Part shown: in pieces, positions 15,154 to 45,608 of the stretch
Numbering within the stretch: the stretch's first letter is position 1
How the letters are laid out: each line of letters opens with the position of its first letter
NCBI GenBank assembly: GCA_963817895.1
Contig: CAWFQB010000001.1
Coordinates: forward strand, 1,376,001-1,440,000
Direction of reading: 5' to 3'
DNA: 64,000 nucleotides
Source: an uncultured Chthonomonadaceae bacterium
Lineage (GTDB): Bacteria > Armatimonadota > Chthonomonadetes > Chthonomonadales > Chthonomonadaceae
Notes under the pieces: generated by a model
The model's input: the letters and a program-made list of their open reading frames with translations, nothing else
What the model was told of the DNA's origin: nothing
Databases searched by the model: none
Program-made: the position numbers and the translations under genes

Positions 15154-16768
15154 CTAACTGCTATTACCCGGTTTGAGGATTTCCACCGGGGACTTGTCCT
15201 GTACCTGCGCCTGTCCCAGCGTGATGACCTGATCGCCCGGTTTCAGGCCCGACGTGACTTCAACGTCTTTAAGGTTGGCGTAGCCGACTTTCACTTTGCG
15301 CTCTTCAGCGACTTTGTTGTTGACCACGAACAAGCGTCCGGCTTTGCCGTCGTTGTCCAGAACGGCGTCGCGTGGCACAAGCACGACATTGCGATGCGTG
15401 TTCAGCGTAATCTCGCCCCGCGCGAACATCTGCGGGCGGAGTGTGCTGCCCTCATTGCGCAGGCCGATACGCACCGTGAAGTTGCGGGCGGCGGACGAGG
15501 CGACCGGGAAAATCTGCTTCACCGCGCCCTGAAACGTCCGGTTGGGAAACGCGCTCACGGTCACGGTTACAGTTTTGCCGGGAGTCACTTCGGCGTACAT
15601 AGATTTCGGGCAGTTGCGCGTCGAAATAGATGCTATCCAGCGCGACGAGCCGCATCACGCCGAATCCCGCCGCCACCTGCTGCCCCGGTTCCACCTTGCG
15701 CTCGGCCACTACGCCCTCAATCGGGGCGCGTATGGCGGCATCCGACAGAGCCTGCTGCGCAAGACGAACGGCAGCTTCGGCCTGCTGTATGCTGGCCTGC
15801 GCCTGCTGTACCCCCGCTTCCGCTGTTGTCACATCGGCGCGGCGCAAATTGACCTGACTGCGGTTCGCCTGCGCGGTAATGAGAGTTTGGCGGGACTGCT
15901 CGACTGTAGCTTCCGCCCGCGCCACATCCTCCGTGCGCGAACCCTCCTGCACCAGACTGAGATTCTCCTGCGCCGAGCGAATTCGCGCGTCCGCCGAGGA
16001 CACTTTGGCTTTGGCGGCGTTGACATGGGCAAGGCCGCTTTCCGAAACGGCCTGCGCCTGATCCAACTGCTGCGCGGGAATGGCGTTCTGCTTGAACAGC
16101 GATTGATAGCGCCGCAAATCGGATTGCGCCCGGTTGTAATCGGCCTGTGCGCTGGCAAGGTCGGCTACATTGCTTTCCCGATCCGCCTGCGCCTGCGACA
16201 CAGCCTGCTGCGCCTGCTGCCGCTCCTGCGTTCGCGCCCCGGTTTTCACCACTGCGGCGGATTGCTGCGCGGCGGTCAATCCTGCCTTTGCCTGACTGAC
16301 CGCGCTTGCCGTCTGCTGATCGGTCAGTTTTACGGTTGTTTGCGCATTGGAAAGCGTTTCGCGGGCCTGCGCCAAACGGGTTTGCGCCTGCCGTAGATTG
16401 GCGCGCTGCTGATCCAACTGCGCCGAAAAATCAGACACATCTTGCTGCACCACGACCGCGCCCCGATGCACCGTATCCCCCTCGCGGTAGTAGACAAAAC
16501 TGATTTTGCCCGCCAGTTTGGAGCCGACTGTCACATCGTTTTGCGCGCTCAACGCGCCCGTCACCTGCTGCGTTTGGGTAATCACGCCGGTTCGGGCGGA
16601 CATAACGCCTACCTGCGTGGCTGTGGGCGCGGCGGGTTTCGCCCCTGCGCCCTTCGCATCGGTTTTAGCCGCGTCGCCGCCCGGTTTACGGCATCCCGTC
16701 AGGCCAATCACGCCCGTTACGGCTACAATTCCAGCGAGGGCGCGAACCCGATTATGTGAATGTTTCAT
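15154..16768 (-). CDS. RND efflux periplasmic adaptor lipoprotein (frameshift near 15600)
   Basis: LTGC lipobox, long coiled coil, IRAPIEGVV, LRPQMFARG, VPRDAV, SGLKPGD. Confidence 0.88.
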
Positions 16769-16809
16769 TGGTAAGTTTCTGAATAGGTTTCTGGAAAGGG
16801 TTGATTTCA

Positions 16810-19215: not shown

Positions 19216-19383
19216 GTTCCTGTGTCATGGTTATTTACGCTTCGTCAACCTGTGAAGTTGCAAAATAAGTTAAGCCGGGTGAACGCGGCAAATTTTAGAT
19301 ACGCCGGCCCTGTCCCTCATCCCTGCTTGACACACGCGAACCTGTCTGCCATAATAACGCGACAGAACTTTACCTGAAACACC

Positions 19384-20691
19384 ATGACAAATCACGAATT
19401 TTCAACCGAATTTCCCGGCGGCGAAGACTGGCGCAATGCTGCCATCAATTACGCCATCAAAATGGAAGCCGCCGATGGCGAAGGCATGGACGCGCTGCTG
19501 TACGCTATCCGGCTACAGCGTCCGGGCGGCGCGACCCTGCTGCTGTGGCACGACCGCCTGCGCTTGAAGCAGTTCCTCGAAACCTCCGCGCAGCAGTTCG
19601 AGTCATTGCTTCCCGGCGACGACGGGCATATCGAGCGCGCGGAAACCTGTCCCTATGTGGCGTGGTACGCCGTGACGTGGGAAGAGGAGCGCATTGAAAT
19701 CGCCCTTCCGCCCGGAACCTACATCAGCACGGGTTCGGTCTTGATGGGCCATGACCCGCGCTTATTGCGCCGGTTCGCCGATGCTTTGGAAGCGTTCGCG
19801 CTGCGTCCCGCCGGTCGCAGTCTGCGCTACTCGCAGGGTTGGGAAAGCGCGCCCGATCTGGACGCCGAAATGGGTAAAGTGACGTGGGACGATGTGATTC
19901 TGGCTCCGAAGATTATGAGCGGCGTGCGTGAAGCCGTCGAGGGATTTTTCCAGCATCAGGACGCTTTCGAGGCGTTGGGCTTCCCGTGGCGGCGCGGACT
20001 GCTGCTCGTCGGCCCGCCCGGAACCGGCAAAACCATGATCTGCAAAGCCGCCGCCACCGCAATGGACAAGCTGCCGTTTCTCTATGTGCGCGATTTCAGT
20101 TCCGGCAACCACGCGGACGCCGTAGAAGTTATCTTTGAACGCGCCCGCAAACTGTCGCCGTGCCTGCTTGCCTTCGAGGACATTGATGGACTGGTTACGC
20201 AGGGCAACCGCACCGTGTTTTTGAACGAACTGGACGGCTTCCAGAACAACAACGGCCTGCTCATCATCGCCAGTTCCAACCATCCGGGCAAAATAGACGA
20301 GGCGCTGCTCAAACGCCCGTCGCGCTTTGACCGCGTGTTTCACATCGGAATGCCCGCCCTTGCCGAACGCCGCGCGTATTGCGAACGCCTGCTGTCGCGT
20401 TCCACGCTTGCCGAACGCCTGTCCCCCGATCTGGATATTGGCAACCTGTCGCAGGTGGTTGCCGAATGGACGGACGGCTTCACGCCCGCGTATCTAAAAG
20501 AGGTCTTCATTTCCGCCGCCCTGCGTCGGGCGCAGGCAGGCGCGACCACGCTGGACGAGGATTTCCACAACACGGTCATAGATCAGGTCGAGGAACTGCG
20601 CAAGCACCTGCGCCGCGTCCAAAAGCCCGACGAAATGGGCGAGTTCACCAACCCCGAAAGCGAACGAATGGGCCTACGCGGTAAAGATTAA
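19384..20691 (+). CDS. AAA+ ATPase
   Basis: Walker A GPPGTGKT, Walker B AFEDID, SRH IDEALLKRPSRFDR. Confidence 0.9.
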   Translation: MTNHEFSTEFPGGEDWRNAAINYAIKMEAADGEGMDALLYAIRLQRPGGATLLLWHDRLRLKQFLETSAQQFESLLPGDDGHIERAETCPYVAWYAVTWEEERIEIALPPGTYISTGSVLMGHDPRLLRRFADALEAFALRPAGRSLRYSQGWESAPDLDAEMGKVTWDDVILAPKIMSGVREAVEGFFQHQDAFEALGFPWRRGLLLVGPPGTGKTMICKAAATAMDKLPFLYVRDFSSGNHADAVEVIFERARKLSPCLLAFEDIDGLVTQGNRTVFLNELDGFQNNNGLLIIASSNHPGKIDEALLKRPSRFDRVFHIGMPALAERRAYCERLLSRSTLAERLSPDLDIGNLSQVVAEWTDGFTPAYLKEVFISAALRRAQAGATTLDEDFHNTVIDQVEELRKHLRRVQKPDEMGEFTNPESERMGLRGKD

Positions 20692-20749
20692 CTCGCCTGC
20701 CTGCGGTAAAGTTTTGTTACAGTAATCCATCAGGTCAGAGGAGAAAACG

Positions 20750-21541
20750 TTGAATCTGACGGAATTTATAAGCAGTTTATCCCCGGCTGACAGTCAGGCG
20801 CTTCAAGAGCGTCTTGATGTTTTGTCGCGTCACAATTTAGGCCGTCAGTTTGTCATTAACCTGAAAGCGGAGGCGCGGTTTACCATTGCTATTTGGCAGA
20901 CACTCCATCAAACTTTCCTTAACGCCTCACCCGACCCTGACAGTCTGCGAACAGCATTTATAGACGCCTTTCGTCCGTACATATTAAATGGCGGTTCAAT
21001 TCCCACACCTTGGCCCACTCACTATGGACGCGCCACGCCGGAGAACATTTTTGCTGACCTACTCGTAAAACAGGGCAAGGCGACTTCACGCACAGCGGCA
21101 AAACGCTTCCTCAGGAATCTAATGTCAAAGTCCCTACCAATAGTCCAGCAAAGATTAGCGCACAAAGAAATCGGCCAGTATATGATATGGGCGACGTTCA
21201 ACGAAGACAACCCAAATGGCGACCCTTTTGAAAAATTGCCGGATGATGCGGAAGGCATCCGGGCCGGCCTCGGCTTGGACCCCAATTACACCGGCGACAT
21301 GATTTTACTGACCTACTACTTGCCTGTTGGAGTGGAACCTTTGTATCCAACCGTTGCCGATGGTTACTCTAGTGGCTGGAACTACTATTATCGTCCTTCC
21401 TATACGGATGAGCGGTATGGCAGAACTTTATGCTGGCTTGGACGCGCCGATGTGTCCCCTTGCCCGGAAGTGGTTCATAAGCCTGTGACCGGCGATTGTT
21501 TGCTCGCTCCCATAGCAAAGGCGAAAGAGAAACGAATATGA
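20750..21541 (+). CDS. Hypothetical protein, possible ART-fold toxin/effector
   Basis: 263-aa ORF with SD; spaced YGRATP / IWATF / GRT...CPEVVH motifs. The ORF is well supported, the fold is inference. Confidence 0.6.
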   Translation: MNLTEFISSLSPADSQALQERLDVLSRHNLGRQFVINLKAEARFTIAIWQTLHQTFLNASPDPDSLRTAFIDAFRPYILNGGSIPTPWPTHYGRATPENIFADLLVKQGKATSRTAAKRFLRNLMSKSLPIVQQRLAHKEIGQYMIWATFNEDNPNGDPFEKLPDDAEGIRAGLGLDPNYTGDMILLTYYLPVGVEPLYPTVADGYSSGWNYYYRPSYTDERYGRTLCWLGRADVSPCPEVVHKPVTGDCLLAPIAKAKEKRI

Positions 21542-22371
21542 GTCCACTTACAGATGAAAACGGCAAACTGGATTTGGCAGCCGTTGAAAATTTAAGTGAA
21601 TCTGAACTACGCGATTGGATATTTGCGCGTCTGCATAGTCAGGATATGCTTGTTCCCGGCGGTTTTGGTCGAGCCGAACTGCCACATTTTTTGCTGACGC
21701 AAATCTATCCACAACTCAGCCGTCCTGCGCGTCAGGATATGGAAAATATCGTTGAGGACTTTGTACGTAAAATGGCGCGTCACAATGAAAGCGAATGGCA
21801 GGGTGACGCAGCGGATGAATTGCTGTTACTGGCGCAGACGGTTTGCGGCGGCACAACCATCAATCAAGCCGTAATTGGCTACATTGAGGAAATGGCGCAA
21901 TCGTTAAACTTCTTCAATGCCGATAATGACGGGCAGATAGACTTGCATTACCGTCTGCTGCAAAGTCTGGTTGCGCTCGGTTGGCGTGGAAGGCCGGAGT
22001 TTTGGCGTGAACAGGTACGCCGTGCCTCGAAACGATATACAGGTGTTGCTTTTAGTGGCCTTGCGCTGATAAGCCCTAAAGAAGCGGTCGCGCTGCTAAC
22101 GGAGATCGAATGGTCGGACGCGGTTGAGGATCAGATTTTCACCAATCTGCCGGACTTTTTAGAGGAGTACCAGATTTCCTGCGTCCTGCCCCTGTTTCAG
22201 CGTTATCTTCCCGCCATGCGAGAACGGACACGAGCCGCTATTTGCGGCTACATGGCTGAAGAGGGAATTCCGCTGGCATTGACAACTGTGACAAGTACAA
22301 AGTATGAACCACATAGAGACTTTTTTCGCAAGCGTGATTTGCCAATCACGCTAGAGCATGCGGCTACCTGA
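21538..22371 (+). CDS. Hypothetical, probably alpha-helical protein
   Basis: ATGA overlap with the upstream gene and TGATG overlap with the downstream gene. Confidence 0.7.
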   Translation: MSPLTDENGKLDLAAVENLSESELRDWIFARLHSQDMLVPGGFGRAELPHFLLTQIYPQLSRPARQDMENIVEDFVRKMARHNESEWQGDAADELLLLAQTVCGGTTINQAVIGYIEEMAQSLNFFNADNDGQIDLHYRLLQSLVALGWRGRPEFWREQVRRASKRYTGVAFSGLALISPKEAVALLTEIEWSDAVEDQIFTNLPDFLEEYQISCVLPLFQRYLPAMRERTRAAICGYMAEEGIPLALTTVTSTKYEPHRDFFRKRDLPITLEHAAT

Positions 22372-24521
22372 TGCTAACCACGAACTTCCGTCCCAAACGC
22401 AAAACCGTATTTTACACCTTTTACTCGTTCAAGGGAGGCGTGGGCCGTACCATGTCTCTGATTAACGTGGCCTGCATCCTCGCGGCGCGTGGGCGGCGCG
22501 TCCTGATGATTGACTTCGATCTGGAAGCGCCCGGTTTGACGAATCTTGCCCTCCGAGATATTGCCGTCGAAGCCGACAAACAGCGCGACGGCCTTGTAGA
22601 ACTGATTCAAGATTTTGTAGATGCTCCTGAAAATTCTCCCTTAGCCGATGAAACCAATCGCGCACCCTTCTTCGACAAGTATGTTCGCCAACTTCAAATA
22701 CCCGACACGCTCGAACCCTTGGAGGGCGGCAGCCTGCACCTATTGCCCTGTGGACGCATAGACGCCACGTATACGGAACGCCTGTACGCCATTGACTTCA
22801 AGCAACTTTATGCGGAGGGAGTTGGGCAGCCGCTGTTCAAGTATCTGAAAACCTATATTCGTGACGCGGAACGCTATGATTACGTCCTCATAGACTCCCG
22901 CACGGGCTTTTCGGACGAGGGCGGCATTTGCACCCGCGACCTTGCCGACCACATTTTCATTATTACCGGCCTGAACCGCCAGAACATTGACGGCACGGTT
23001 CAGTTCCTGCGCCAACTGGAAGCAAGCGGCTGGCAGGAGGGTCAACTCGTCTTCGTCGCCTCCCCCGTTCCCACCGGCCTTGAAGAACTGCGCGATCAGC
23101 GCATCAAAGCAGCAAAAGCAGCGATTGAACAAACCCGCTTCAAAGCCGATTTCAAACTGCGTATTCCCTACCATCCCCGTCTTGCCCTTGACGAAGAGCC
23201 ATTCGTTTATCGCTGGTCGGATACTGACTTATTCCCCTCATACCAGAGCATCGCGCGTGTTCTAAGAGAAATAGTTGATGACACGCCTTTAGTATTGAGT
23301 CAGGAAATCACTGAGGCAATGAATCAGCAAAAGTATGATGAAGCACTATCCATACTTCATCAGTTAATTGCAGAGGAACATGAGGTCGGATTAAGTGTAC
23401 TAACCTCCGTAACTGCTGCAATGGCAGATTCCCCTCACATTCTGCTGGATAAAGCCATACCTTTCTTTGAGATGTTAATTCAGCAACGCAATGTGGCAGA
23501 GCCACACAGACTTTATGCAAACTATCTTAGAAATATTAACAAGTTGCCGGAAGCGCTTGAACAGCTAAATGTCGCGCGAGAAATGTTCGTCAATCGAAAA
23601 GAGGTATCTCAAACCGCTTATGTTTTAATGGATGTTGGGATTATCAATAGCAGACTCGGCGAACCTAATGTAGCGTTAGAGAACTACAGGAGTGCTGACG
23701 AACTATTTACGAGAACCAATAATGATTTAGGATCAGCAACGGTTCGCCTACTTCAAGGTATAAACTATGCCGAAGGCGGGAATTTACAACAAGGATTGTC
23801 ATTAGCTGCAACTGCCGTGGAAATGCTGCGAGGTGTCGGTAATAAATTGGCGTTATCTAATGGTTTAGTACATTACGGTTTCATACTGTTATTAAAAGGT
23901 GAATATTCTTCTGCGTTCGCAGTGTCTAATGAGGCATTGCTTATCAGCCGCGAAATTAGATTGCCCCCGCATACTGCACAGACTTGTGAGTTGAAAGCTA
24001 AAATTCTTCTTGAACAAAAAGAGTATGATGCGGCTATACCTTTATATGATGAAGCCCTACAAGGATATACTGCTATAAACAATTCCATAGGATTAGCTTC
24101 TATCCGTACTGATAGGGGCTATATTGATGTTCAACAAGGAGACGAAAGAGGGCTGGAACAGATAGAAGACTCGGTTCAGTTTTACCATAATACAGGCGAA
24201 TACGGTAGAAGTTCAGGGGCGCGTACTACGTTTGCCGAGGCTTTATTCAGTATCAGCGTACACAGGTGTAATGAGTACATAACTAATCAATGGGAGTACA
24301 TACAACATCATGCAGTCTGTTACACGCGTTATAGACTATACGTTCTTCGCGCCAAAGTAAAGGCCGTGCTTGGCGATAGGCAAGGCGCAGCCGAAGATGC
24401 TCAGATTGCGGTTGACTTTTACCGTGAGCAGGGCGTTCATACACTTTTGGCGCAGGAAGCGGAAAAACTGGCAAAGTTAAACGTTGCGCAAGATGCTGAC
24501 GTAAAAATAAACGCCTCGTGA
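22371..24521 (+). CDS. KGGVGR-motif ParA/MinD-like ATPase fused to TPRs
   Basis: TFYSFKGGVGRT, IDFDLEAPG, YDYVLIDSRTG; C-terminal TPR-like helices. Confidence 0.85.
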   Translation: MLTTNFRPKRKTVFYTFYSFKGGVGRTMSLINVACILAARGRRVLMIDFDLEAPGLTNLALRDIAVEADKQRDGLVELIQDFVDAPENSPLADETNRAPFFDKYVRQLQIPDTLEPLEGGSLHLLPCGRIDATYTERLYAIDFKQLYAEGVGQPLFKYLKTYIRDAERYDYVLIDSRTGFSDEGGICTRDLADHIFIITGLNRQNIDGTVQFLRQLEASGWQEGQLVFVASPVPTGLEELRDQRIKAAKAAIEQTRFKADFKLRIPYHPRLALDEEPFVYRWSDTDLFPSYQSIARVLREIVDDTPLVLSQEITEAMNQQKYDEALSILHQLIAEEHEVGLSVLTSVTAAMADSPHILLDKAIPFFEMLIQQRNVAEPHRLYANYLRNINKLPEALEQLNVAREMFVNRKEVSQTAYVLMDVGIINSRLGEPNVALENYRSADELFTRTNNDLGSATVRLLQGINYAEGGNLQQGLSLAATAVEMLRGVGNKLALSNGLVHYGFILLLKGEYSSAFAVSNEALLISREIRLPPHTAQTCELKAKILLEQKEYDAAIPLYDEALQGYTAINNSIGLASIRTDRGYIDVQQGDERGLEQIEDSVQFYHNTGEYGRSSGARTTFAEALFSISVHRCNEYITNQWEYIQHHAVCYTRYRLYVLRAKVKAVLGDRQGAAEDAQIAVDFYREQGVHTLLAQEAEKLAKLNVAQDADVKINAS

Positions 24522-24557: not shown

Positions 24558-25340
24558 ATGCGTTTTGTGAGACAAAATTTGTTAGCGTGTATTCTGCTCT
24601 GCGTTTGCTGTGACGCGGCCCTTGCCGCGCCGCCGAACCTGAAGCCTGCGCGTTCTGCGCCCATCGCGCCTTCCGCTTCCGCCAACATCAGCCTTGCCGC
24701 CCTGTTGCCGCCGGGACGGTTTCGCGCCGATGTGATGCAGCCGGAACCCTCGCCGCGTCTCGCCCAACTGAGCCGCAAGATGCAGGAGGGCATCCGCAAA
24801 AATCCCCAGTGGTTTATGGCGGAAATCCAGAAAGTGAAACCGGGCGAGAATATTCCCTACGATGCGCGATTGAACCTGACGCGGGAAGAGTACAATCTGT
24901 TGAACCATCCGGCTCCGCAGATGCAATTGCGCAGGGTGGGTGGTGGTCTGATTACGATTTGGAGTGTGGGAACCCGGCGCGTGTTGACCGGCGTGGGAAC
25001 GCTGTTCGGATTGAACGGCATTGAGATTGATCTACAGCGGCAAAGCGTGAAAACCCTGCTTGGCGTTTTGAACGCCCCAACGCCAGTGAAAGCCAATACC
25101 AGCCAGTCCGCAGACGCCACATGGAACGGTTTCGCGTGGAAACTGGATACGATGGCGCATAAAGAGACGCCCTCGCAGATGACAGGCACAATCGCTGAAT
25201 TCACGTTGGGCAAACTGGTAAAATCCGGGCGTATCCAACTCACCTACAAAGCGCAACAGATGAACGGCGGTAAGCCTCAAAGCAATTTCGCCTACCTGCT
25301 GCACTACACTGCGCCTCCGCAATTCCCACGCAGACATTAA
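24558..25340 (+). CDS. Secreted hypothetical protein
   Basis: Signal peptide-like N-terminus ending ALA; 260 aa. Confidence 0.6.
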   Translation: MRFVRQNLLACILLCVCCDAALAAPPNLKPARSAPIAPSASANISLAALLPPGRFRADVMQPEPSPRLAQLSRKMQEGIRKNPQWFMAEIQKVKPGENIPYDARLNLTREEYNLLNHPAPQMQLRRVGGGLITIWSVGTRRVLTGVGTLFGLNGIEIDLQRQSVKTLLGVLNAPTPVKANTSQSADATWNGFAWKLDTMAHKETPSQMTGTIAEFTLGKLVKSGRIQLTYKAQQMNGGKPQSNFAYLLHYTAPPQFPRRH

Positions 25341-25476
25341 CCCATTTTCATTGCGCATCCGGTTGTTCGCGGCATGGAACTTTGCCCGCTTCTGCCGCAT
25401 ACAAATATTGTAGGTAGGGCGGGGGCTTGTCCCCCGCCGATAATGTGATGGCGCACAGAAGCGGGAGTAAAAAAGG

Positions 25477-26433
25477 ATGAAGGTTTTTGTGGCGGGGGCG
25501 ACGGGCGTGTTGGGGCGGGCGCTGCTGCCGTCTCTTGTGGCGTTGGGGCATGAGGTGTATGGCATGGGGCGGACGCCCGAAAAAGTTCTGGCCGTCGCGC
25601 AAATGGGCGCAACGCCCGTTCGCGCCGATGTTCTGGATGCCGCCCGCATTGCCCGCGCGGTTGGCGACGTTCAGCCCGATGCCATTGTCAATCTTGCCAC
25701 GTCCATACCGCTGAAACTGCGCGTCAATCTCGACCACTGGAAAGAGAATGACCGGGTGCGTCTGGAGGGTTCGCGCAATCTGCTTGCGGCTGCCAGAAAC
25801 GCCAACCTGCGCCTGTTCGCGCAGGCAAGCGCGGATCAGGTGTGCGAAACGCAGGGCGACGGCTGGATAACCGAAACTTCGCCGCGCAGTTCCCACGCTT
25901 TTCTCCACGCCACGCAGGAGATGGAAGACCGGGTACGCGCGTCCGGCCTGCCCGCCACCCTGCTGCGCTTTTCCGTCCTGATGGCCGCTGATTCATGGCA
26001 CACGCAGCAAAGCGTCACGGCCCTGAAACGCGGCTTATTGCCTGTCATTGGCGACGGCAGCGCGTTTGTCAGCATGGTTCATGTCGCGGACGCGGTTCAG
26101 GCCATTCTCCTCGCCCTGCAACAGCCGGAACTCGCAGCCGGACAAACCTTCAACGTCGCGGACAACGAACCCGCCCGGATGCGCGACATTCTCCCCTACG
26201 CCGCCCAACTCCTCCACGCGCAGCCGCCCCGAACCGTGCCGCCCCTGATGGCGAAAATGGTAGTCGGCGCGCTGACTATTGACGTGCTGACCCAATCCCA
26301 CCGCATGAGCAATGAGAAAATCCGCCAGACCCTCGGCTTCGCCCCGCAATACCCCACCTACCGCGAATCATGGTCACAAATCGTCCGCGAAATCGGCGCA
26401 AGCGACTTTGCCGCCTCCGATGATTTGAAATAA
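25477..26433 (+). CDS. NAD-dependent epimerase/dehydratase
   Basis: VFVAGATGVLG, VHVADA, FNVADNEP. Confidence 0.9.
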   Translation: MKVFVAGATGVLGRALLPSLVALGHEVYGMGRTPEKVLAVAQMGATPVRADVLDAARIARAVGDVQPDAIVNLATSIPLKLRVNLDHWKENDRVRLEGSRNLLAAARNANLRLFAQASADQVCETQGDGWITETSPRSSHAFLHATQEMEDRVRASGLPATLLRFSVLMAADSWHTQQSVTALKRGLLPVIGDGSAFVSMVHVADAVQAILLALQQPELAAGQTFNVADNEPARMRDILPYAAQLLHAQPPRTVPPLMAKMVVGALTIDVLTQSHRMSNEKIRQTLGFAPQYPTYRESWSQIVREIGASDFAASDDLK

Positions 26434-26620
26434 TAGCGAAGCGCGCTTCCTGTTCTGCGCGCGGCGCGAAAAAATGAAAACCTTTCCATTTAGAAGTGTT
26501 GGTCCTGTATAGCGAAGGTTTTGGAGGCATAAAGGAGAACGCTGTGTTGACGGCGTACTATGCCTTGTCGTGTGAGGATGGAAACACCTCTTTGCAGAAG
26601 AAATACACACCTGCGGAAAG

Positions 26621-26656
26621 TTGCACCCGGCAGAAATGTCGGGTGAGGATGGAAAC
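26621..26656 (+). repeat. Direct repeat, left copy (GAAA-loop hairpin)
   Basis: ttgcacccggcagaaatgtcgggtgaggatggaaac. Confidence 0.85.
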
Positions 26657-26876: not shown

Positions 26877-28009
26877 TTACAAAGATTGAACACCTGAACA
26901 GCTGAACCAAGCCCCTCCTTGCAGAGTTTCGCAGGAAGGGGCTTTTTGTTGTTTGCGATAAGTTGGGTGGCACTTGAGTAAATGACAATTATAACATTGT
27001 ATCAGTAAGTGCTGTTCTACAGTCATACCAAGATGGCGGCAAATAGGGCTCAGCTCCTTATCGGTCAAAGGCCATCTGGCTTTGGCCTCAACCCTATTCG
27101 AGGAGACATAAAAGTATACATACAGTACCGCAGCCAGGCGCATAACATAATTTTCGTCGTAGTCTTTACAAATATCATTGTAAAGAGCTGGGCGCCTAAC
27201 GAAAAACTGCTTTACTTGCTCCACATCCAAATGTTCAGGATCAGCGCCCAACTCCTTTAACAACCACACGCTAGTCTTCGTATCCTGAATGGGTTCTTTA
27301 TGAACTCCCTCAGAATATAGGATATTAAGCTGTTCAATTGTGTGGCTTACGTTTCTGTGCATTCGATTTACAATGTCTGCTGACCTCTGAAACACATCTT
27401 CAGTAGCTTCAAGCAGTGCCATACTTCTTGCCAACGCTCGCCGAATAGGGGATCTCCTACGGCGGATGGTTTATAAACCGTATCGTGTGACATCTCACTG
27501 TACGCATGCTGCATTAAGGTTCGAACTTGGATTTCGCATGGGGTACCGGCTGGAATTGATACTTCCTCATACACATGAGGGGCCTGCAGCCTCACAATGT
27601 AATGATCTGATTGATAATCAAAGACTGTGGGATAACGTTCCCTGTCCTCAGCGAATTCTCGTGATTGTTCCCACGACCAAATCGAGGAATTTTTTATGGC
27701 GTTACCTACTATCTTTGTATCTTCGAGCAGTAAAACAACAAAGCGAACACCCACTTTGTCAAGAACGTCCTTGTACGGATCGGCAAAGTTCATGCCTCGA
27801 AAAAAGGCCTTCGCAACAAAGGAATTTGGATCCTTGACGCGGGGCGATGGAGGTATCCGCAAGAAAGCATTGATAGGTTGAAGTGAAGGTAGTTCACCAC
27901 GGAGTTGATCGGATACCTCTTTGACAACCAAGTGGCCCAGGGCATTAAAGATACCCCATTCTGCTGCAAAACGTTCCTTAGCTTCTTCCGGCGTCATGAC
28001 TTGATCCAT
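26877..28009 (-). CDS. RelA/SpoT-domain (small alarmone synthetase-like) nucleotidyltransferase, frameshift near 27450
   Basis: RVKD..S...K, DKVGVR, YQSDHYIV, EIQVRTLMQHAYSE..HD..YK; continues in the 26877-27434 frame (ARSMALLE). True 3' end uncertain. Confidence 0.85.
26909..26947. terminator. Intrinsic terminator-like hairpin
   Basis: aagcccctccttgc..gcaggaaggggcttttt. Confidence 0.55.
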
Positions 28010-29108
28010 TCACGGGCCTAGTGGTATCGCCCTTCTCAGTCAGGAAACCCCGGATTTTGATGAGTGTGTAGCCCTCATCGTTGGAGATGACTTCTAATAG
28101 GTCCTCAAAGCCTGTTGACGGGGCTGTAATTACTACCTTTGAATTGAAGTTAAGGAAGCGTTTGCTCAGTTTCCCAGCCACGACGTTTCTATCAATTACT
28201 ATGTCGATGTCTGGGAATTCCTTCTCCCCCATTTCATTGACGTATTGGCCCCGAAAGTTTTCGGGAAGATAGGCAGCAAAATCTGCCACATTGATTCTAC
28301 TACGAACAGGGTCCTGTAAATAGGAATACAAGAGTGTACTAATTTCTACTTTTTCTCTGTCCGAGATGGACAAGTTGAGTATGTGAGATTGGGTAAGATT
28401 ATAAAAATCTCCTGTCAATTTTCTCGAAATTTTTGCTACCGTGCATCCCATAAAGGATTTATAGAAATATTGGGCCATCCCATCTGTGGAAGTACGGGTT
28501 ATATGATGGTCATATATAATCGCTCTGAAATCGTCGGTGAAACGAAGCTCGCCCTCTGGCCCATCAGGTCTTGTTTCTTCTACAAATATTCCTATTTTGT
28601 AGAGCTTTTGAGTCGGTGTGAGAAACATTTGCTTTATATGCTGCATTTGCTCTACCAGAGCTGAACCATCACTTAGTTGCGCAGATGTCGAAAAGCCTTC
28701 ATGCAGCTCGCTCTTCATCACACAAATAAAACGCTTGTCTTCATCACCAGTTGTACCGGATAGTACCAGAACATATCCATCAGGAATTTTGCCTGATGTT
28801 TGCACACTCTCCAATCTTTGGACAAGTTCACGATTGAGCCTGATAAACTCGATGTCATTACAGGCAATCATCTTTGCGCACATCTGGAAAGTAGATCCTT
28901 CGCCATCATTCTCGATATCCATTTCAACGCAATGGGAATTTGATCGAAGGTATTCCGTAAGCCGCTGTGTGACGGTTCGCAGCAGCTCTCTATTTAGCAT
29001 AGAGGGTGCATCTGCGCATAGTCTATAGTATCCCTGACCACCATCTTGACGTTTTGCTAAGAGACTTTCTGTGATGCGGTGGATTTGTAGATTGCTGAAA
29101 AGACTCAT
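27978..29108 (-). CDS. NA37/YejK-like nucleoid-associated domain protein
   Basis: 376 aa; MKSELHEGF, FLTPTQKLYKIG, AQYFYKSFMGC resemble the 37-kDa nucleoid-associated family; overlaps the RelA/SpoT gene. Confidence 0.68.
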   Translation of the reverse strand: MSLFSNLQIHRITESLLAKRQDGGQGYYRLCADAPSMLNRELLRTVTQRLTEYLRSNSHCVEMDIENDGEGSTFQMCAKMIACNDIEFIRLNRELVQRLESVQTSGKIPDGYVLVLSGTTGDEDKRFICVMKSELHEGFSTSAQLSDGSALVEQMQHIKQMFLTPTQKLYKIGIFVEETRPDGPEGELRFTDDFRAIIYDHHITRTSTDGMAQYFYKSFMGCTVAKISRKLTGDFYNLTQSHILNLSISDREKVEISTLLYSYLQDPVRSRINVADFAAYLPENFRGQYVNEMGEKEFPDIDIVIDRNVVAGKLSKRFLNFNSKVVITAPSTGFEDLLEVISNDEGYTLIKIRGFLTEKGDTTRPVNGSSHDAGRS

Positions 29109-29135
29109 GGTGTCATCCTATTGGCAGCTTGATTG

Positions 29136-29726
29136 CTAGTTGTTGTCCGTAGCTTCTATTGCGTTTTGATCAGTTTTGTCCGGCTTCAAAGGTGAGTAGC
29201 CAGAAGCTTTAGCAATAGTGCTTGAAAATAAACGATTAGATACTACTGGTGATTCTTTGGCTAAGGCGTCCATTTGCTTTTGAATGCCGTCAAGGTAAGC
29301 TTTAGGTTTGCCGCGACTGACAGGAAGCAAAGCCGCTGTTTTTTCCAAATCCCTTCGTATCGCTGCGTAATGCGCTGCAGACGCTCGATGCTTTTCGGCG
29401 CGTTCTGATAGCTTAAGAAAAGTTTGGAGACTTGAGAGAAAGGCTGAGGTAAGAGTGAGAAAGGCCATAACATAAATTCCTCTATCACCCCAACTTTTAA
29501 TGATATTAGTCACAGCGCCAACGCCGGCGAAACTAGAAAAGATAATTGCGATTATTCCTAGCCCCTTGTGCCATTTGTCATTTGATTCGGCAGCAGCATA
29601 GTGTGTAAGTTGTTGATCCCGTACGCGCCTGTGCCAATTTGTTATTACATGATCAACTGCTGCCCATTCACTCTCAAGGGAAGTATCTGAAGGTTTCGCT
29701 AAATCTTCGGACAACGTTTTACTCAT
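29136..29726 (-). CDS. SLATT-domain two-TM protein
   Basis: W......Q..HY.AA....K.H..LG, two TM helices, LQTFLKLSERAEKHR..A..Y..IRR.LE. Confidence 0.82.
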   Translation of the reverse strand: MSKTLSEDLAKPSDTSLESEWAAVDHVITNWHRRVRDQQLTHYAAAESNDKWHKGLGIIAIIFSSFAGVGAVTNIIKSWGDRGIYVMAFLTLTSAFLSSLQTFLKLSERAEKHRASAAHYAAIRRDLEKTAALLPVSRGKPKAYLDGIQKQMDALAKESPVVSNRLFSSTIAKASGYSPLKPDKTDQNAIEATDNN

Positions 29727-29794
29727 CTTGCTTTTACCTCATCAACCTATTCCAAGTCGTTTCCACATTCGCCAACACAGCAGCCAAGACTTTC

Positions 29795-29998
29795 CTACCC
29801 GCTGGAAGCAATCGCTGCTTTCTTGCCTCTCCCGCCCTTCAGCTTATCGCGCTTACGGAACTTTTCGATATCCTCACTGTTCAGGCACACGTAAGGAACG
29901 CCCTCGACCGGCTTCAGTCAGCCCTGGCGAATGGCCGCGTAGATGCGTTCACGCGACACGCCCACTTCTTCTGCCGCTTGTGAAACTCTCAATAACAT
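29795..29998 (-). pseudogene. Excisionase-like HTH protein with internal TGA
   Basis: Manual translation MLLRVSQAAEEVGVSRERIYAAIRQG*LKPVEG...; SD gaggtg; not in the ORF track. Confidence 0.65.
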
Positions 29999-30164
29999 TG
30001 TCTTCACCTCGTTTGAATAATGTACCCTAAACCTGTTCACAATCGCAAACAATTTGTTGCAGTGTGTCTGATTACAAGCCGCATAGTCGCTCCTGCCCCT
30101 CCCTCAAACAAGCCGTGTGAACCCCTGTGTAAGACTTCTCTACTGTAACTACATCCAGAGACAT

Positions 30165-30538
30165 CATTCAGATGATTTTCTTTTCGGCTTTGCGTTGGAA
30201 GCAGGTGACTGCTACAGCACCTTGCGAGCGGATTGGCGGCAGTATGATCGGCGCGCACTTGGTCGGGGGCGGCGTGAAGATAGCCCATTGTGGTTTCGAG
30301 CCGGCTGTGTCCTAAAATACGGGCGGCGCTAACGACGTTGGTTTTGGCGATCTCCGTTGCCGTGAAATGGCGCAGGGAGTGGCGGGTGTAGTAAGGCAGG
30401 CCGGCAAACTCCAGGTAGAGATTCATGCGCTTCTTGGCGCTGTCTTTGTCTAAGGGCAGGCCGCCTTCGGACAGCAAGAGGGGGGCGTTTTTGAGTTGCG
30501 GACGGATTTTCAGTCATTTCTTGACGGCGAGTACCCAC
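30165..30538 (-). pseudogene. Tyrosine recombinase C-terminal remnant
   Basis: HSLRHFTAT...LGHSRLETTMGY catalytic motifs; N-terminal part absent; limits approximate. Confidence 0.8.
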
Positions 30539-30577: not shown

Positions 30578-30634
30578 ACGCCTGGTTGGATTCGAGCCAA
30601 CGGCCTCTTGCTCCGGAGGCAAGCACTCTATCCA
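30578..30634 (-). pseudogene. 5'-truncated tRNA-Arg(CCG) fragment (att-like)
   Basis: Reverse complement TGGATAGAGTGCTTGCCTCCGGAGCAAGAGGCCGTTGGCTCGAATCCAACCAGGCGT: anticodon arm CCG, degenerate T-loop, ~15 nt of the 5' end missing. Confidence 0.75.
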
Positions 30635-30636
30635 CA

Positions 30637-30672
30637 TTGCACCCGACAGAAATGTCGGGTGAGGGTAGAAAC
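30637..30672 (+). repeat. Direct repeat, right copy
   Basis: ttgcacccgacagaaatgtcgggtgagggtagaaac; 33/36 identical to the left copy. Confidence 0.85.
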
Positions 30673-31812: not shown

Positions 31813-32343
31813 TCTTTCGCTCCAATGAGGAACAAAACTTCCCCGGTCTCACCAGGACAAACCCCCCGGTAAAAAATTTAGAAAAAAGTGACAAACAGCG
31901 CAAAAAACCGAAACCTGCGCCAGAAACATCTGTCTACATAAAAAGAACGTCTATTAAACAGCCAGGTGGCGGGACGCGGAGAGTTTAAAATTCCTCTCCA
32001 CAATCTTACCTGGAAGGGAGGTGCCAAAAAGATGCCTGTACATACACGGTCGCCGTGACCATAATGAGGTCACGACGCCTCCTTAGAAAAAATTTGACAC
32101 AACGAGACACTGGGCTGGAAGCGCTGCATTGCCAATATTTCGACGCTGTCTCTGCATACTCTTTTTCTTTTTCCGTTTAGAGACGCCGACCCTGCCAGAT
32201 AATTTTCCAGCGCATAAATCGCGGATACAGTAAACTACAGCGCAACAAAGTCAAATTACCCATCTCTAACCAGAATATAGCCTCGTAATAAGACTTAAAT
32301 CAGGGTTGCTCTTCTTCACTATTACCGTCAGAGGAAAGTTTAC

Positions 32344-35018
32344 ATGATTCAGGGCAGATCACTCACAGCCCCGCGCTCAAATTTCCGTAAGAAAGCAGGG
32401 GGGACATGGCGACGCTCGCTTGCCTTACTCCTTTCCGGCAGTGGGATGCTGCTGGTGTTTGCCGCATCTGTCGGGCATAGCAGTCCTCCCGTTCCTGCGC
32501 GGGCGCAAACCACTCTGGCAATGCCGCCCGCCGCGCAGAGTTTTTTGCGTCAAAACTGCCTGGCCTGCCACAGCAAAACGAACACAAGCGGCGGGTTGGA
32601 CCTGAAAATCGCCTTTCATCCCGAAGTTGCGGCCAATTTCAGCCTTTGGGTCAAGGCGCATGACCGCGTTGCCGCCGGAGAAATGCCCCCGAAAACGTCT
32701 CCGCAACCCGCTCCCGCCGCGCGTAAGAGTTTCCTGGCCGCCCTCAGTCAGCCCCTGATTGCCGCGGATACGGCGCGAACCCGGCGCGAAGGGCGTTCCA
32801 CATGGCGGCGCATGAACCGCTATGAGTACGAGAATACCCTCCGTGACCTGCTGGACGCGCCCTGGCTGCAAATCAAAGACATGCTGCCCGAAGATGGCCT
32901 TTCCGCCCGCTTTAACAAGGTGGGGGACGCGCTGGATGTATCCCACGTACAGATGAGCCGTTATCTCGCCGCCGCCGGTTACGCCCTGCGGGAAGCCCTG
33001 CCCAAACAGGCCGCGCGACCCGAAACCACGACCACGCGATTTTACGCGCGCGAACAGCGCTCCTTTGTCGGCCCCGCGAAATTCACCGTATTCAATACCG
33101 CGTCGGAACGGGCAACATTTCCCATTCTCGGCGATGCGGCGGATATTCCCGCGCTGATGGAAACCGCGCCCATGACCGTAGGCGCGGCAGACCCGGCGAA
33201 GCGCGAACTGGAAGCGATGGGCGTAGCTGCCGGCGCGTATGAGCCGCTTAGCCCCGTTTCGACCGGTTCCGCGCCCCTGTTTCCGGGCGTTACAAACTCC
33301 GGCTGCGCGCCCATTCGTTCTGGGCCGCGCCCGACAACCCCAAACAATGGTGGCATCCCAGCCGCAAGGACCTTTCCGCAGGCCGGACACAGGAACCGAT
33401 AAGCCTGTACGCCTCCTCCCCGCCGCAGCAATTACGCAAACTGGGCAGCGTGGATGTCGGCCCGCAGTCCACAATCGGCGAAATCGAAGCCGACCTGATC
33501 AAGGGGGAAACCATTCTGCCCGACGCCGCCCGTCTGTTCCGTTCGCGTCCCCCCAACTGGCACAACCCTCTGGCGGAAAAGGACGGACAGCCGGGAGTCG
33601 CTTACCAGTGGCTGGAAGTGGAAGGTCCGCTGTACGAGGCGTGGCCGACGCCGGGACAGCGCCTGCTGTGCGGCGATTTGCCTCTGAAAGAGACAGGGAC
33701 AAAAGGCAGCAAACAAATCGAGATTGTTTCCAGTGATCCCGATGGGGACGCATCCCGGCTCATTCATGGTTTCATGAAACGCGCCCTGCGTCGTCCGATT
33801 GGCGCGTCCGATGTTGAGCCGTTCGTGAAACTCTTCCACACGGCGCGGCAATCGGGCGCGGATTTTACGGAATCGCTGCTCACCGCGTATACCGGCGTAC
33901 TCTGTTCGCCCGCCTTTGTCACCCTCGAAGAACGACCGGGACTGCTCAACGACTACGCTCTTGCGACGCGGCTGTCGTACTTTTTGTGGAACTCGGAACC
34001 CGACGACGTGTTGCGCTCACTGGCCGCTCAGGGCGCATTACATACTCCGAAAACGCTGGTCGCGCAAACCAACCGGATGCTGGATGACCCACGCTCACAA
34101 CGGTTCGTGTCCGCGTTTCTCGACTACTGGCTCGACCTGCGCAAGACCGGCAACACCTCGCCCGATGAGACGCTGTATCCCGACTACTATCTGGACGACT
34201 ACCTTACCGAATCGTCCATAGAGGAACCCCGCGCCTTTTTCGCCGAACTGATACGCGGCAACCTGCCTGCCCACAATCTCGTCGCCTCGGATTTTGTCAT
34301 GGTCAATCAGCGCCTTGCCACGCTGTACGGCCTGCCCGATATTGCGGGTTCCCACCTTCGGCGCGTGGCCCTGCCGCAAGATTCGGTGCGCGGCGGATTG
34401 CTCACGCAGGCAAGCGTGTTGAAAGTCACCGCGAACGGCACGACCACTTCACCCGTCTTGCGCGGAGCGTGGATTACGGAGCGGATTTTAGGGCAGCCCG
34501 TTCCGCCCCCGCCGCCTTCCGTCCCCGCTGTGGAACCCGACATACGCGGCGCGACCACCATCCGCGAACAACTGGCGAAACATCGCACGCAGGCGACCTG
34601 CCAATCCTGCCACGCCCGCATTGACCCGCCCGGTTTCGCGCTGGAAAGTTTCGACGTTTTTGGCGGCTGGCGCGACCACTACCGCGCATTGGGCGACGGC
34701 CCGAAGACTGCGGGCTTCGGGAAGAACGGTCAGGCGTTTGTGTTCCATGCCGCGCAACCCGTAGACCCGTCCGGTTCCCTGCCCGATGGCCGCAAGTTCA
34801 GCGATGTTCGGGATATGAAACGCCTGCTGTTGCAGGATGAGCGGCAAATTGCCCGTAACCTTGTCCGGCAATTGGTGACATACTCTACGGGAGCAACCGT
34901 AGGATTCGGCGACCGACCGCAAGTGGAAGCCATCTTAAATCGCGCTCAATCCGGGGGATACGGGGTAAAATCCATCCTTCACGAAATCATTGCCAGCGAC
35001 CTCTTCAGGAACAAGTAG
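32344..35018 (+). CDS. Planctomycete-type cytochrome c / DUF1592-DUF1588-DUF1585 protein (frameshift near 33250)
   Basis: CLACH and CQSCH heme motifs, [25 protein letters not shown]. Confidence 0.87.
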
Positions 35019-36404: not shown

Positions 36405-36689
36405 CTATGCTACAGCTTCTACCGGTTCGCCCGGAAACAGGATAATGTCTAATCCCTGTTCGTCTTGAAGAACCCCTTCCACTTCGGCCAACGCCTCATA
36501 AAGCGCGTACATGCGCCGAGGCCACGGACGCGGAAGGACAGGAACCCGCCACCACGTTCTGTTCCCGCTGACTGTGCTGTAGATACCACTTTCATCTACG
36601 TCAAGCGTCATACTGTCGAATGGCGGCGCGGCGGCTAAAGCTTGCCGCACAAAATCAGCAATTTCATGTTTTTGTTTTAATTCAGTCAT
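36405..36689 (-). CDS. Small hypothetical protein coupled to HEPN (putative antitoxin)
   Basis: Overlaps the HEPN stop; acidic C-terminus. Confidence 0.55.
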   Translation of the reverse strand: MTELKQKHEIADFVRQALAAAPPFDSMTLDVDESGIYSTVSGNRTWWRVPVLPRPWPRRMYALYEALAEVEGVLQDEQGLDIILFPGEPVEAVA

Positions 36690-37077
36690 TTTCAACTCGC
36701 AGCAGTCGTCTTACGACCAATACATCTCGCAGGCTGTTGAAAGCCGTTTGTTTATCTACGGTTCGCCCCGGTCTATAATCTGCATCTTCCCGCGCAGTAC
36801 GCAAGGAACGAAGCAAGCGCACAACCGTTCTTCGCTCTTGTCGCGTGAAGCCACCGTTGTTCAATATCAACTCCGGCAACTGCTCATGTGATGGATTGTT
36901 CCATCCCGTCGGAAAGTTTGTACTGTCACCATGCGCCACGCAGATTGAAGTAGCGGCTTGATAGGCCGCATAGTACGCGCGACTCGCGCAGTCACGGTAG
37001 CGGCCTTCATCAAAAAGCAACTGCGCCGCCTGCAACGATTGCGCGGCTTGATTTCGCCATTGTTCTGATGAGTACAT
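36682..37077 (-). CDS. HEPN-domain protein
   Basis: A..L...G.Y....SRAYYAAYQA, R..ADY motif. Confidence 0.85.
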   Translation of the reverse strand: MYSSEQWRNQAAQSLQAAQLLFDEGRYRDCASRAYYAAYQAATSICVAHGDSTNFPTGWNNPSHEQLPELILNNGGFTRQERRTVVRLLRSLRTAREDADYRPGRTVDKQTAFNSLRDVLVVRRLLRVEND

Positions 37078-37165
37078 GGTGGTAGGACTATTATACGGGC
37101 AATCCTCCTCAATGTACAGTGATGACGCTGCAAAAATCGCGAACTCGTGACGCGCAAAAAGATTA

Positions 37166-37693
37166 TCAGCGGGCGAAGGTAATTAAATCACAGCTGATGG
37201 CAATTACCAAACTGCGTCCCGTTTCAGAAAAGCCATATGCGCGTAATTCACAAGCGCCTTCATCGCCAATGACAACGGATTCTCCATTCATAATGCGACC
37301 ATCTTCATGCTTGACGGTTGGAGGCGTCAACAGAATACTGCGCGTCGGCCCGGCGGGGGCTTCCTCTTCCAAAAACCATTCATCTTTGGTTGTCAGTGGC
37401 AAGCCGCCCCCGAACAGTCCTGCCATACGGATGCTCTTGCCTTCCAGCGGGCCAAACCCCTGCGCGAGTAAGCGAATAGGGTCAAAGAAGTCGTGAGCCT
37501 CAACGTAGTCACGAGCCAGTTTCTCACCTGTCAAACAATCAAAAATGCCTCGGCCTTGAGAGGACAGCACCAGTAGTAAATCGCTGTTTTCGGCATAGCC
37601 AACCTGGAACAGGCCACCTACAGGCCAGGTGGCGCAATGCTTCCAGGGGGCAGGAGGCTTCTGTATAGCAGATCGAATTTTGGTAGTCATCAC
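37166..37693 (-). CDS. Hypothetical protein
   Basis: 175-aa ORF; VGGL..VGY, SSQGRGIFDC.TGEKLARD, GLFGGGLP look like a conserved family. Confidence 0.6.
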   Translation of the reverse strand: MMTTKIRSAIQKPPAPWKHCATWPVGGLFQVGYAENSDLLLVLSSQGRGIFDCLTGEKLARDYVEAHDFFDPIRLLAQGFGPLEGKSIRMAGLFGGGLPLTTKDEWFLEEEAPAGPTRSILLTPPTVKHEDGRIMNGESVVIGDEGACELRAYGFSETGRSLVIAISCDLITFAR

Positions 37694-44985: not shown

Positions 44986-45255
44986 ATGGTAGTTGTCAGT
45001 GAACCTCGTTTCAGTATCGAACAACTTGTGGCACAGGCAAAAGCTACGAGTGAGCCAGTCGTGCTTACGACAAACGGCAAGGCGGAACTCGTCTTGCTCA
45101 CGCCCGAAGCATACGAGGCGTTGCTCGACCGTATAGACGTGTTGGACAGCGTAATCGGCATGTACAAAGCGGAACGCGAATTCGACAGAGGCGAAGGACG
45201 CGATGCGCGTGAAGCGTTGGAAGAATTGAGGCTCAAACTTGGCGTACCACGTTGA
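44986..45255 (+). CDS. Phd/YefM-like antitoxin 1
   Basis: EPVVLTTNGKAELVLL..EAYE. Confidence 0.8.
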   Translation: MVVVSEPRFSIEQLVAQAKATSEPVVLTTNGKAELVLLTPEAYEALLDRIDVLDSVIGMYKAEREFDRGEGRDAREALEELRLKLGVPR

Positions 45256-45595: not shown

Positions 45596-45608
45596 GAAGG
45601 AGTTAGAA

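Follow-up and report, generated by a model that had tools for sequence, protein, structure and literature searches.

A SLATT-bearing operon with type I PANGU architecture on a decayed integrase island of an uncultured Chthonomonadaceae bacterium

A 64,000-nucleotide (nt) stretch of the genome of an uncultured Chthonomonadaceae bacterium (GenBank assembly GCA_963817895.1, contig CAWFQB010000001.1, positions 1,376,001 to 1,440,000; hereafter the window, numbered from its first letter) carries a foreign, SLATT-bearing operon with type I PANGU architecture on a decayed integrase island. PANGU type I was defined in a preprint as a YejK-like protein, Pag1A, together with a synthetase of the GRel subfamily, Pag1B (Li et al., April 2026, bioRxiv 10.64898/2026.04.06.716658); what we say of this source applies to the part of its text that was accessible. 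The operon in the window consists of a gene for a SLATT_4 membrane protein, a gene for a nucleoid-associated protein (NAP) of the NA37/YejK family, and a gene for a small alarmone synthetase of the RelA/SpoT type. We consider it likely, with a probability of roughly 0.8, that this is a horizontally acquired locus of type I PANGU architecture with an added SLATT gene, working as the preprint describes for homologous pairs. The copy in hand is predicted to be non-functional unless a frameshift in its synthetase gene is an assembly error. As the NA37-synthetase pair has already been described, what the optional SLATT gene adds is the sole point of wider interest.

Four minus-strand open reading frames (ORFs) make up the locus: 29726..29136, 29108..27978, 28009..27368 and 27434..26877, encoding 196, 376, 213 and 185 amino acids (aa), respectively. 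The SLATT_4 and NA37 genes lie 27 nt apart, and the NA37 and synthetase ORFs overlap by 32 nt as listed. Across positions 27001-30000 the G+C content is 0.43-0.47, compared with mostly 0.53-0.65 in the rest of the window. These observations confirm the three co-oriented, tightly packed, low-G+C genes proposed in an earlier sequence-only reading of this DNA, whose SLATT, NA37/YejK-like and RelA/SpoT assignments were borne out by Pfam, NCBIfam and PADLOC searches and by fold matches.

The first gene of the operon (29136..29726, minus strand) is intact. Residues 28-167 of its 196-aa product constitute a SLATT_4 domain (PF18186; E 7.8e-7, 29.4 bits against a cut-off of 27), and the protein was also matched by NCBIfam NF033632 (E 3.2e-30, 105 bits, cut-off 55) and by PDLC00712, the PADLOC profile of a CBASS-type "2TM effector" (E 5.3e-15). 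A clear hydrophobic stretch occupies approximately residues 54-77, and a weaker second one begins at about residue 86. No nucleotide-reading module was recognised in this protein, and no further family was found at E ≤ 0.1 beyond chance-level matches. The second gene (27978..29108, minus strand), also intact, encodes the 376-aa NA37/YejK-family protein, the predicted Pag1A-like sensor, which was matched by PF04245 (E 2.4e-10, 40.7 bits against a cut-off of 24.6). When its AlphaFold model (mean predicted local distance difference test score [pLDDT] 84.7, from a 63-sequence alignment) was compared with the PDB, the sole fold match at E ≤ 0.001 was E. coli YejK (9be2; E 6.2e-8, template-modelling [TM] scores 0.48/0.52). 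A PDB sequence search with the same protein, a tblastn search of phage records and a scan of the NCBIfam models each returned no match.

The synthetase is encoded over two frames. Its N-terminal piece, the 213-aa ORF (27368..28009, minus strand), was matched by the RelA_SpoT family (PF04607, E 2.2e-11) and is homologous to its relatives as far as approximately 27441, the final 26 codons being out of frame. The 185-aa ORF had no family match in the Pfam, NCBIfam and PADLOC scans; the stretch 27021..27434 (minus strand), in the other frame, nevertheless aligned with the linker helix and acidic C-terminal domain of GRel proteins, the counterpart of the "DMK" NAP-binding domain. Synthetase homologues are single proteins of approximately 328 aa (361 at E ≤ 0.001 among 515 candidates), and the family profile retrieved 400 cluster representatives at E ≤ 1e-30 among 1.84 billion, nearly all of them 320-340 aa long. 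The closest non-self homologues are 49-54% identical to the 213-aa ORF. In one relative, P0003, residues 1-183 align with the 213-aa ORF at 54% identity, and residues 189-326 align with the 185-aa ORF in another frame at 43% identity; catalytic domain, helical linker and acidic C-terminal domain are all present and homologous in the window, but divided between two frames.

In the family alignment, every invariant N-terminal column (R/K/S/K, D..G.R, Y.S.H and E.Q.RT..QHA) is kept in the window synthetase, in agreement with the earlier view that its motifs are intact. Window residue Y132 stands in the invariant Y column, and its correspondence to the G-loop tyrosine Y129 of the preprint is by numbering and motif rather than by the tested sequence. 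The model of an intact relative from the census described below (L006; pLDDT 91.9) comprises a synthetase domain (residues 1-175), a long helix (183-232) and a helical domain (240-322); in the PDB, its fold is matched best by RelQ and RelP, both small alarmone synthetases (E about 1e-9, TM score 0.8 by target). The C-terminal domain is acidic throughout the family, with a median net charge of -6 and an isoelectric point (pI) of 4.9 over 81 rows, and the homologous 135 residues in the window have a net charge of -4 and a pI of 5.7.

In Pag1B, according to the preprint, a synthetase domain at the N terminus is joined by a helical linker to an acidic, "DNA-mimicking" domain at the C terminus; alone the protein forms an inactive tetramer, and the isolated synthetase domain is inactive as well. 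A Pag1A dimer binds the C-terminal domain with a dissociation constant of 9.4 nM, in a 2:1 complex resolved by cryo-electron microscopy, with R258, R306 and H314 as binding contacts in the tested protein. Defence against T4 requires both genes and is abolished by Y129A; T4 escapes via mutations in its EndoII nuclease, and in the course of infection Pag1A departs from the nucleoid. In the two-gene systems, pppGpp synthesis with depletion of nucleoside triphosphates is given as the toxic output. As far as the accessible text goes, no tested construct was toxic, the partner activating rather than neutralising the synthetase. Some Cluster 1 operons were noted to carry a SLATT gene, and the tested systems were bicistronic (Li et al. 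2026, bioRxiv 10.64898/2026.04.06.716658). In our search of the literature for the SLATT-NA37-synthetase trio, only this preprint proved relevant.

Among the features by which we judged membership in type I PANGU are (i) a YejK/NA37 protein of at least 300 aa, (ii) a NAP gene followed by a synthetase gene less than 40 bp away, and (iii) a synthetase that unites catalytic domain, helical linker and acidic C-terminal domain in one protein. The window has a NAP of this family and size, the NAP-then-synthetase order and spacing, and the catalytic residues, including the G-loop tyrosine; the three synthetase parts are there too, but as assembled they are split over two frames near 27441-27440. If the locus works as its homologs do, the YejK-like protein would reside on the chromosome as a dimer and would be freed when a phage nuclease degrades that chromosome. 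The freed, Pag1A-like protein would then bind the acidic C-terminal domain of the Pag1B-like synthetase, converting an inactive oligomer into an active complex that would turn ATP and GTP into AMP and pppGpp, and this output would shut down the cell in an abortive infection. For this locus, DNA-release sensing, partner binding, the pppGpp product and phage protection are each predicted by homology only. Control of the synthetase by the NA37 protein, as part of an abortive defence, had been proposed from the sequence, and is what the preprint reports for homologous two-gene operons; the accompanying idea that this protein senses phage DNA or protein is not supported, as the preprint instead describes release upon degradation of the host chromosome by a phage nuclease. 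The remark that there had been no experimental test is now outdated for the pair, and seems still to be true for the SLATT-bearing trio.

The pairing of the two genes was confirmed by a census of synthetase loci, taken from one genome per species, in which 144 relatives were confirmed and the best 80 loci were used. Of 78 ORFs directly upstream of the synthetase that were compared with Pfam, 76 were NA37, 75 of these above the cut-off, and the remaining two are cut by contig ends; using a family hidden Markov model, NA37 was found upstream in 79 of 80, the sole miss being a locus without upstream DNA (L017). The overlap between the two genes is typically 4 nt. In other genomes, the pair adjoins restriction-modification, toxin-antitoxin, Fic and integrase genes. 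Broken copies of the system recur: the NA37 gene is split in loci from a Capsulimonadaceae genome (L004, 4930-6008) and from Pseudomonas (L038, 4901-6004), and is reduced to a 75-aa end piece in one from Bradyrhizobium (L015, 5774-6001).

A SLATT gene was present in 12 of the 80 loci, in two families and two positions. SLATT_4 lies upstream of the pair in two Capsulimonadaceae genomes (L004 and L006), SLATT_1 lies upstream in nine marine gammaproteobacteria, and a SLATT_1-like gene lies downstream in one Pseudomonas lundensis locus (L072). No match to SLATT or DUF4231 was found in 101 more flanking ORFs of the loci that had no SLATT call, so that 68 of the 80 are without a SLATT gene. In this gene-neighbourhood check, which the sequence-only reading had suggested, the NA37-synthetase adjacency is near-universal and the SLATT gene is optional. 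In a synthetase tree of 81 rows built by quick search, the window sequence grouped with the two other SLATT_4-bearing loci (Shimodaira-Hasegawa-like approximate likelihood ratio test [SH-aLRT] support 96), the nine SLATT_1 loci formed one clade (SH-aLRT 98-99), and the SLATT state changed at least three times. In the NA37 tree, the SLATT_1 grouping recurred with a support of 100, and the SLATT_4 grouping only weakly, with 61.

The trio also occurs in E. coli, where a blastn search with a Morganella trio matched 4 of 5,426 complete genomes. In two of these four, the genes are annotated as SLATT, nucleoid-associated protein and GTP pyrophosphokinase and directly follow a tRNA-Thr gene and an integrase gene; in the other two, a DUF4231 gene occupies the SLATT position. 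An E. coli locus of the latter kind (L176; strain BEC1-S17-ESBL-07, NZ_AP022295.1 3620694-3623244), with DUF4231 upstream of the nucleoid-associated protein and GTP pyrophosphokinase genes, lies on an island that carries a relaxase gene and an integrase pseudogene at tRNA-Thr.

The operon of the window is foreign and island-borne. Among 30 relatives of the host, of which 2 share its genus, 16 its family and 12 its order, no NA37-like homologue was found. Both same-genus genomes are syntenic with the window over 19369-20751 and 24678-26433, and the synteny breaks off at 26433; as to the right border of the island, 20-kb stretches of both genomes match nothing in the window beyond that position. 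Read on the minus strand from 30672, the island consists of a repeat, a tRNA-like fragment, an integrase fragment, an HTH_17 gene, the SLATT, NA37 and synthetase genes, and a second repeat. The tRNA-like element (30585..30640, minus strand) is a fragment rather than a whole gene (RF00005, 24.7 bits, E 0.072, model positions 10-63 of 71), and was not called by ARAGORN. Of the tyrosine integrase, only the C-terminal 146 aa remain (30037..30477, minus strand; PF00589, E 1.1e-6, profile positions 102-170 of 172), and the frames upstream are closed. The excisionase-type HTH_17 gene (29795..29998, minus strand) has an in-frame TGA, its PF12728 match (E 5.8e-6) running over residues 21-66 across the interrupted position 46. 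Together, these three remnants substantiate the decayed integrative element that had been suspected.

Two 37-nt repeats resembling CRISPR-DR9 bracket the 4-kb island, one at its left edge (26620..26656, plus strand; RF01322, 40 bits, E 8.1e-7, below the gathering score of 45) and one at its right edge (30636..30672, plus strand; 28.9 bits, E 0.0017, likewise below the gathering score). Both match CRISPR-DR9 over their full length, are identical at 33 of 37 bases and lie 4016 nt apart, and they are the only copies in the whole genome; a half copy at 26566-26585 lies 71 nt upstream of the left one, a CRISPR-like period. A lone diverged copy, without an array, was found elsewhere in a further genome, G001. 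A live CRISPR system behind these repeats is not supported, given that no Cas1 was found in the genome (81% complete) and that it has only two copies; they may represent an orphan CRISPR array split by an insertion, or something else.

Several points weigh against our reading of the locus. The preprint behind the mechanism is not peer reviewed, and the mechanism is carried over to this locus from homologous pairs. Membership in type I PANGU was set by families and architecture, and the label GRel is the preprint's term. Identity to the trio of E. coli SCU-102 is only 25% for the NA37-like protein, 39% for the synthetase domain and 22% for the C-terminal domain. PADLOC 2.0 (2023) has no model for the NA37-synthetase pair and returned no match to the NA37 protein, while the synthetase only weakly matched a candidate profile (PDC-S33, E 1.9e-4). 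Finally, the synthetase gene is frameshifted as assembled, has 49 residues after the conserved C-terminal Gly, compared with a median of 6 (range 1-15) in 80 relatives, and sits on a tree branch of 1.36, compared with a median of 0.29.

The frameshift lies at 27440..27441 (minus strand), where the window has one base fewer than the family frame needs. When the DNA is compared with the family consensus, the N-terminal frame reads ...GDPLFG and the C-terminal frame RALARSM..., and the consensus P-x3-R-x2-A-K-S-M can be read only if one base is common to both frames at the break. A break near 27450 had been suspected from the sequence, and it is real in the assembly. It falls at the start of the long helix that joins the catalytic to the C-terminal domain. 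Because the synthetase is cut between its catalytic and regulatory domains, and the isolated catalytic domain is inactive in the preprint, the copy in the window, as assembled, is predicted to be inert, which makes it an ordinary, possibly dead member of the family. Programmed frameshifting was considered and rejected: only one frameshift element was matched, RF01834, at 28640-28714 (E 0.015, well short of the gathering score), and this position is within the NA37 gene, away from the break.

Whether the lesion belongs to the organism bears directly on that prediction. An assembly error in an operon that is intact and functional in the organism is a real possibility, which we rate as somewhat less probable than a genuine lesion. 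Two other genes of the window look split in like manner: a HlyD-type membrane-fusion gene (15154-15600 and 15452-16810, 148 and 452 aa, with overlapping ORFs) and a gene with PSCyt1/PSD3 and PSD5/PSD4/PSCyt3/PSD2 domains (32344-33402 and 33450-35018, 352 and 522 aa). Taken with a completeness of 81% in 14 contigs, compared with 97% in 3 contigs for one same-genus genome, these splits hint at indel errors in the assembly, and the SLATT and NA37 genes are intact and all invariant catalytic residues of the synthetase are kept. Against an assembly error, the break lies outside any long homopolymer, runs of 5 or more being absent, and the gene has the abnormal 49-residue tail (26877..27020, minus strand) and the long branch noted above. 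The in-frame TGA of the HTH_17 gene and the truncated integrase are lesions that indel errors cannot make, and broken NA37 copies occur in relatives (split in L004 and L038, truncated in L015). The matching runs listed are three soil-metagenome runs of a single study, with no RNA run among them; four short contigs from one run (X1) cover 27448-27719 and 27917-28297, end at 27448, short of the break, and none crosses it.

We further considered what the SLATT protein contributes. Most probably it serves as an accessory membrane effector that was joined to the NA37-synthetase pair. The sequence-only reading had envisaged an obligatory relay of the CBASS type, from alarmone to SLATT, which is not upheld: because 68 of the 80 loci have no SLATT gene, such a relay is not the general logic of the system, and the window protein offers its SLATT_4 domain alone. 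The relay as a reading of the trio, in which the alarmone acts mainly as a second messenger that opens a SLATT pore, the SLATT protein being the real killer, is a minority reading that we regard as unlikely. SLATT-clan genes have repeatedly been recruited to the pair (SLATT_4 upstream, SLATT_1 upstream, a SLATT_1-like gene downstream, and DUF4231 upstream in two E. coli genomes), and in PADLOC the SLATT protein falls with the 2TM effectors that belong to signalling systems. The separate recruitment of SLATT_1, SLATT_4 and DUF4231 points towards this messenger reading; even so, that (p)ppGpp from a NAP-activated synthetase doubles in SLATT-bearing PANGU as an immune second messenger opening the SLATT pore is, to us, a shade more doubtful still. 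If true, it would make the stringent-response alarmone a defence signal with a dedicated membrane effector. On the other side, the two-gene systems protect alone (Li et al. 2026, bioRxiv 10.64898/2026.04.06.716658), and no nucleotide-reading domain beyond SLATT_4 is found in the SLATT protein.

Relatives of the SLATT protein bear on the same question. The window's SLATT_4 subfamily is rare, with 21 relatives at E ≤ 1e-5, the best of them 56% identical, and we scanned metagenomes for further members, confirming 201 relatives and using the best 80 loci. None of the 80 had an NA37 gene, and accordingly none had an NA37-SLATT_4 pair without a synthetase. Three of the 80, on metagenome contigs from two studies (L102:4992-6205, L104:2999-5040 and L115:4599-6890), encode a RelA_SpoT protein of approximately 450 aa directly downstream of the SLATT gene, without NA37. 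The resemblance of this protein to GRel is confined to the synthetase domain (residues 13-175, hhalign probability 95.5); its C-terminal part is TPR-like by Atlas, with scores below 0.9 that make this a lead only. The occurrence of SLATT_4 beside a GRel-like synthetase without NA37 favours the relay, since it ties the SLATT gene to the synthetase rather than to the nucleoid protein, but the evidence is thin: the three loci come from two studies only, and two of them are perhaps near-duplicates. They possibly represent a sister architecture with a fused sensor in place of the nucleoid protein.

That the genes form a housekeeping stress module unrelated to phages, an ordinary nucleoid protein plus a stringent-response synthetase, is very improbable: both families do include housekeeping proteins (E. 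coli YejK in one; RelQ and RelP, the nearest folds among solved structures, in the other), but these genes are foreign, low in G+C, absent from 30 relatives and borne on an integrase-bearing island, the same genome has a separate long RelA_SpoT gene (G000:C2:513558-513890, E 2.3e-40), the pair travels with SLATT and elsewhere adjoins restriction-modification, toxin-antitoxin, Fic and integrase genes, and homologous pairs protect against phage (Li et al. 2026, bioRxiv 10.64898/2026.04.06.716658).

With type I PANGU architecture as the preferred reading, defence by a nucleoid sensor and an alarmone would reach a large, soil-type genome (7.5 Mb) outside the phyla in which it has been tested. Because its synthetase gene is broken as assembled, the window copy is probably a poor starting point for experiments; the census offers clean material for studying the contribution that a membrane protein makes when the effector is lethal already.

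Other features of the window were recorded in passing. A second insertion, at 20750-24521, lies 2 kb from the PANGU island, and neither same-genus genome has it at the syntenic position. It contains two genes of unknown family and a gene for a 716-aa AAA ATPase with a KGGVGR motif and TPR repeats (NF047398, E 8.9e-44; PADLOC candidate PDC-M28B, E 1.7e-23), and is possibly another defence candidate. Just upstream of the PSCyt gene, at 31902-32197, lies a member of a dispersed repeat family, approximately 200-290 nt long, that matches about 40 places in the same-genus genome G002 (74-84% identity) and several in G001. The window is rich in mobile and conflict genes (2163-2854, 10540-11547, 36682-37693, 45239-46236 and 58100-60736), including a DUF5615/DUF433 pair, a TnpB/Cas12f-like OrfB_IS605 gene, a HEPN protein and its unassigned neighbour, ParE/Phd modules, and an 878-aa adenylate-cyclase-STAND-TPR protein.

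Among known systems, several share parts of this design. In CBASS and Thoeris systems with 2TM or SLATT effectors, as in the window, a nucleotide-making enzyme stands beside a SLATT-type membrane protein; the window differs in having a pyrophosphokinase instead of a CD-NTase or TIR enzyme, in that SLATT is optional, and in that no signal-reading domain was found. The toxSAS and CapRel proteins share with the window a RelA/SpoT-type synthetase fold employed in abortive infection, and the model of the intact relative matched CapRel (7ztb) at E 1.4e-5. CapRel differs in being a toxin fused to its antitoxin; phage proteins trigger it, and it pyrophosphorylates tRNA. GRel/Pag1B reportedly depends on an activator and produces (pp)pGpp, without labelling of tRNA in the accessible account (Li et al. 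2026, bioRxiv 10.64898/2026.04.06.716658). The toxSAS systems have a cognate or fused antitoxin; at the window locus there is no antitoxin gene, the neighbours being NA37 and SLATT.

A YejK domain also occurs in DS-1, a validated E. coli anti-phage system found with DefensePredictor (DeWeirdt et al., Science 2026, PMC13092281), where it is listed among the newly validated defence domains; in the accessible part of that paper, SLATT and alarmone have 0 occurrences each. Type II PANGU, composed of Pag2A and the membrane effector Pag2B, resembles the window in combining a YejK-like sensor with a membrane protein. In the preprint's AlphaFold model, Pag2B itself has an acidic domain for NAP binding, to which a transmembrane domain is fused at the C terminus, whereas the SLATT protein of the window is a bare SLATT_4 domain, accompanied by a synthetase.

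The layout is matched by the thrW island of E. coli SCU-102 (NZ_CP051753.1 871361-873935), in which, as in the window, tRNA, integrase, SLATT, NA37 and synthetase follow one another at tight spacing; the small integrase island described here is laid out like that one. The SCU-102 trio is intact, with 22-39% protein identity to the window, whose synthetase is split. Its SLATT protein is of the SLATT_1 type, as judged from 76.6% DNA identity to the SLATT_1-bearing Morganella locus (L074), and that of the window is SLATT_4. Another close system is type I PANGU itself. Like the window, it has a YejK-family gene directly upstream of, and overlapping, the gene for a three-part synthetase of approximately 328 aa, whose parts in the window are spread over two frames; it also keeps the G-loop tyrosine and is set in mobile or defence islands, with SLATT noted in some Cluster 1 operons. 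It was defined and tested as a two-gene system, the form with SLATT being only noted; the window departs from it in its frameshifted synthetase and 49-residue tail. Its tested sources are F. futtsuensis, E. coli and P. aeruginosa, and the host of the window is a soil-type bacterium with a 7.5-Mb genome, in which the same gene pair is preceded by a SLATT gene.

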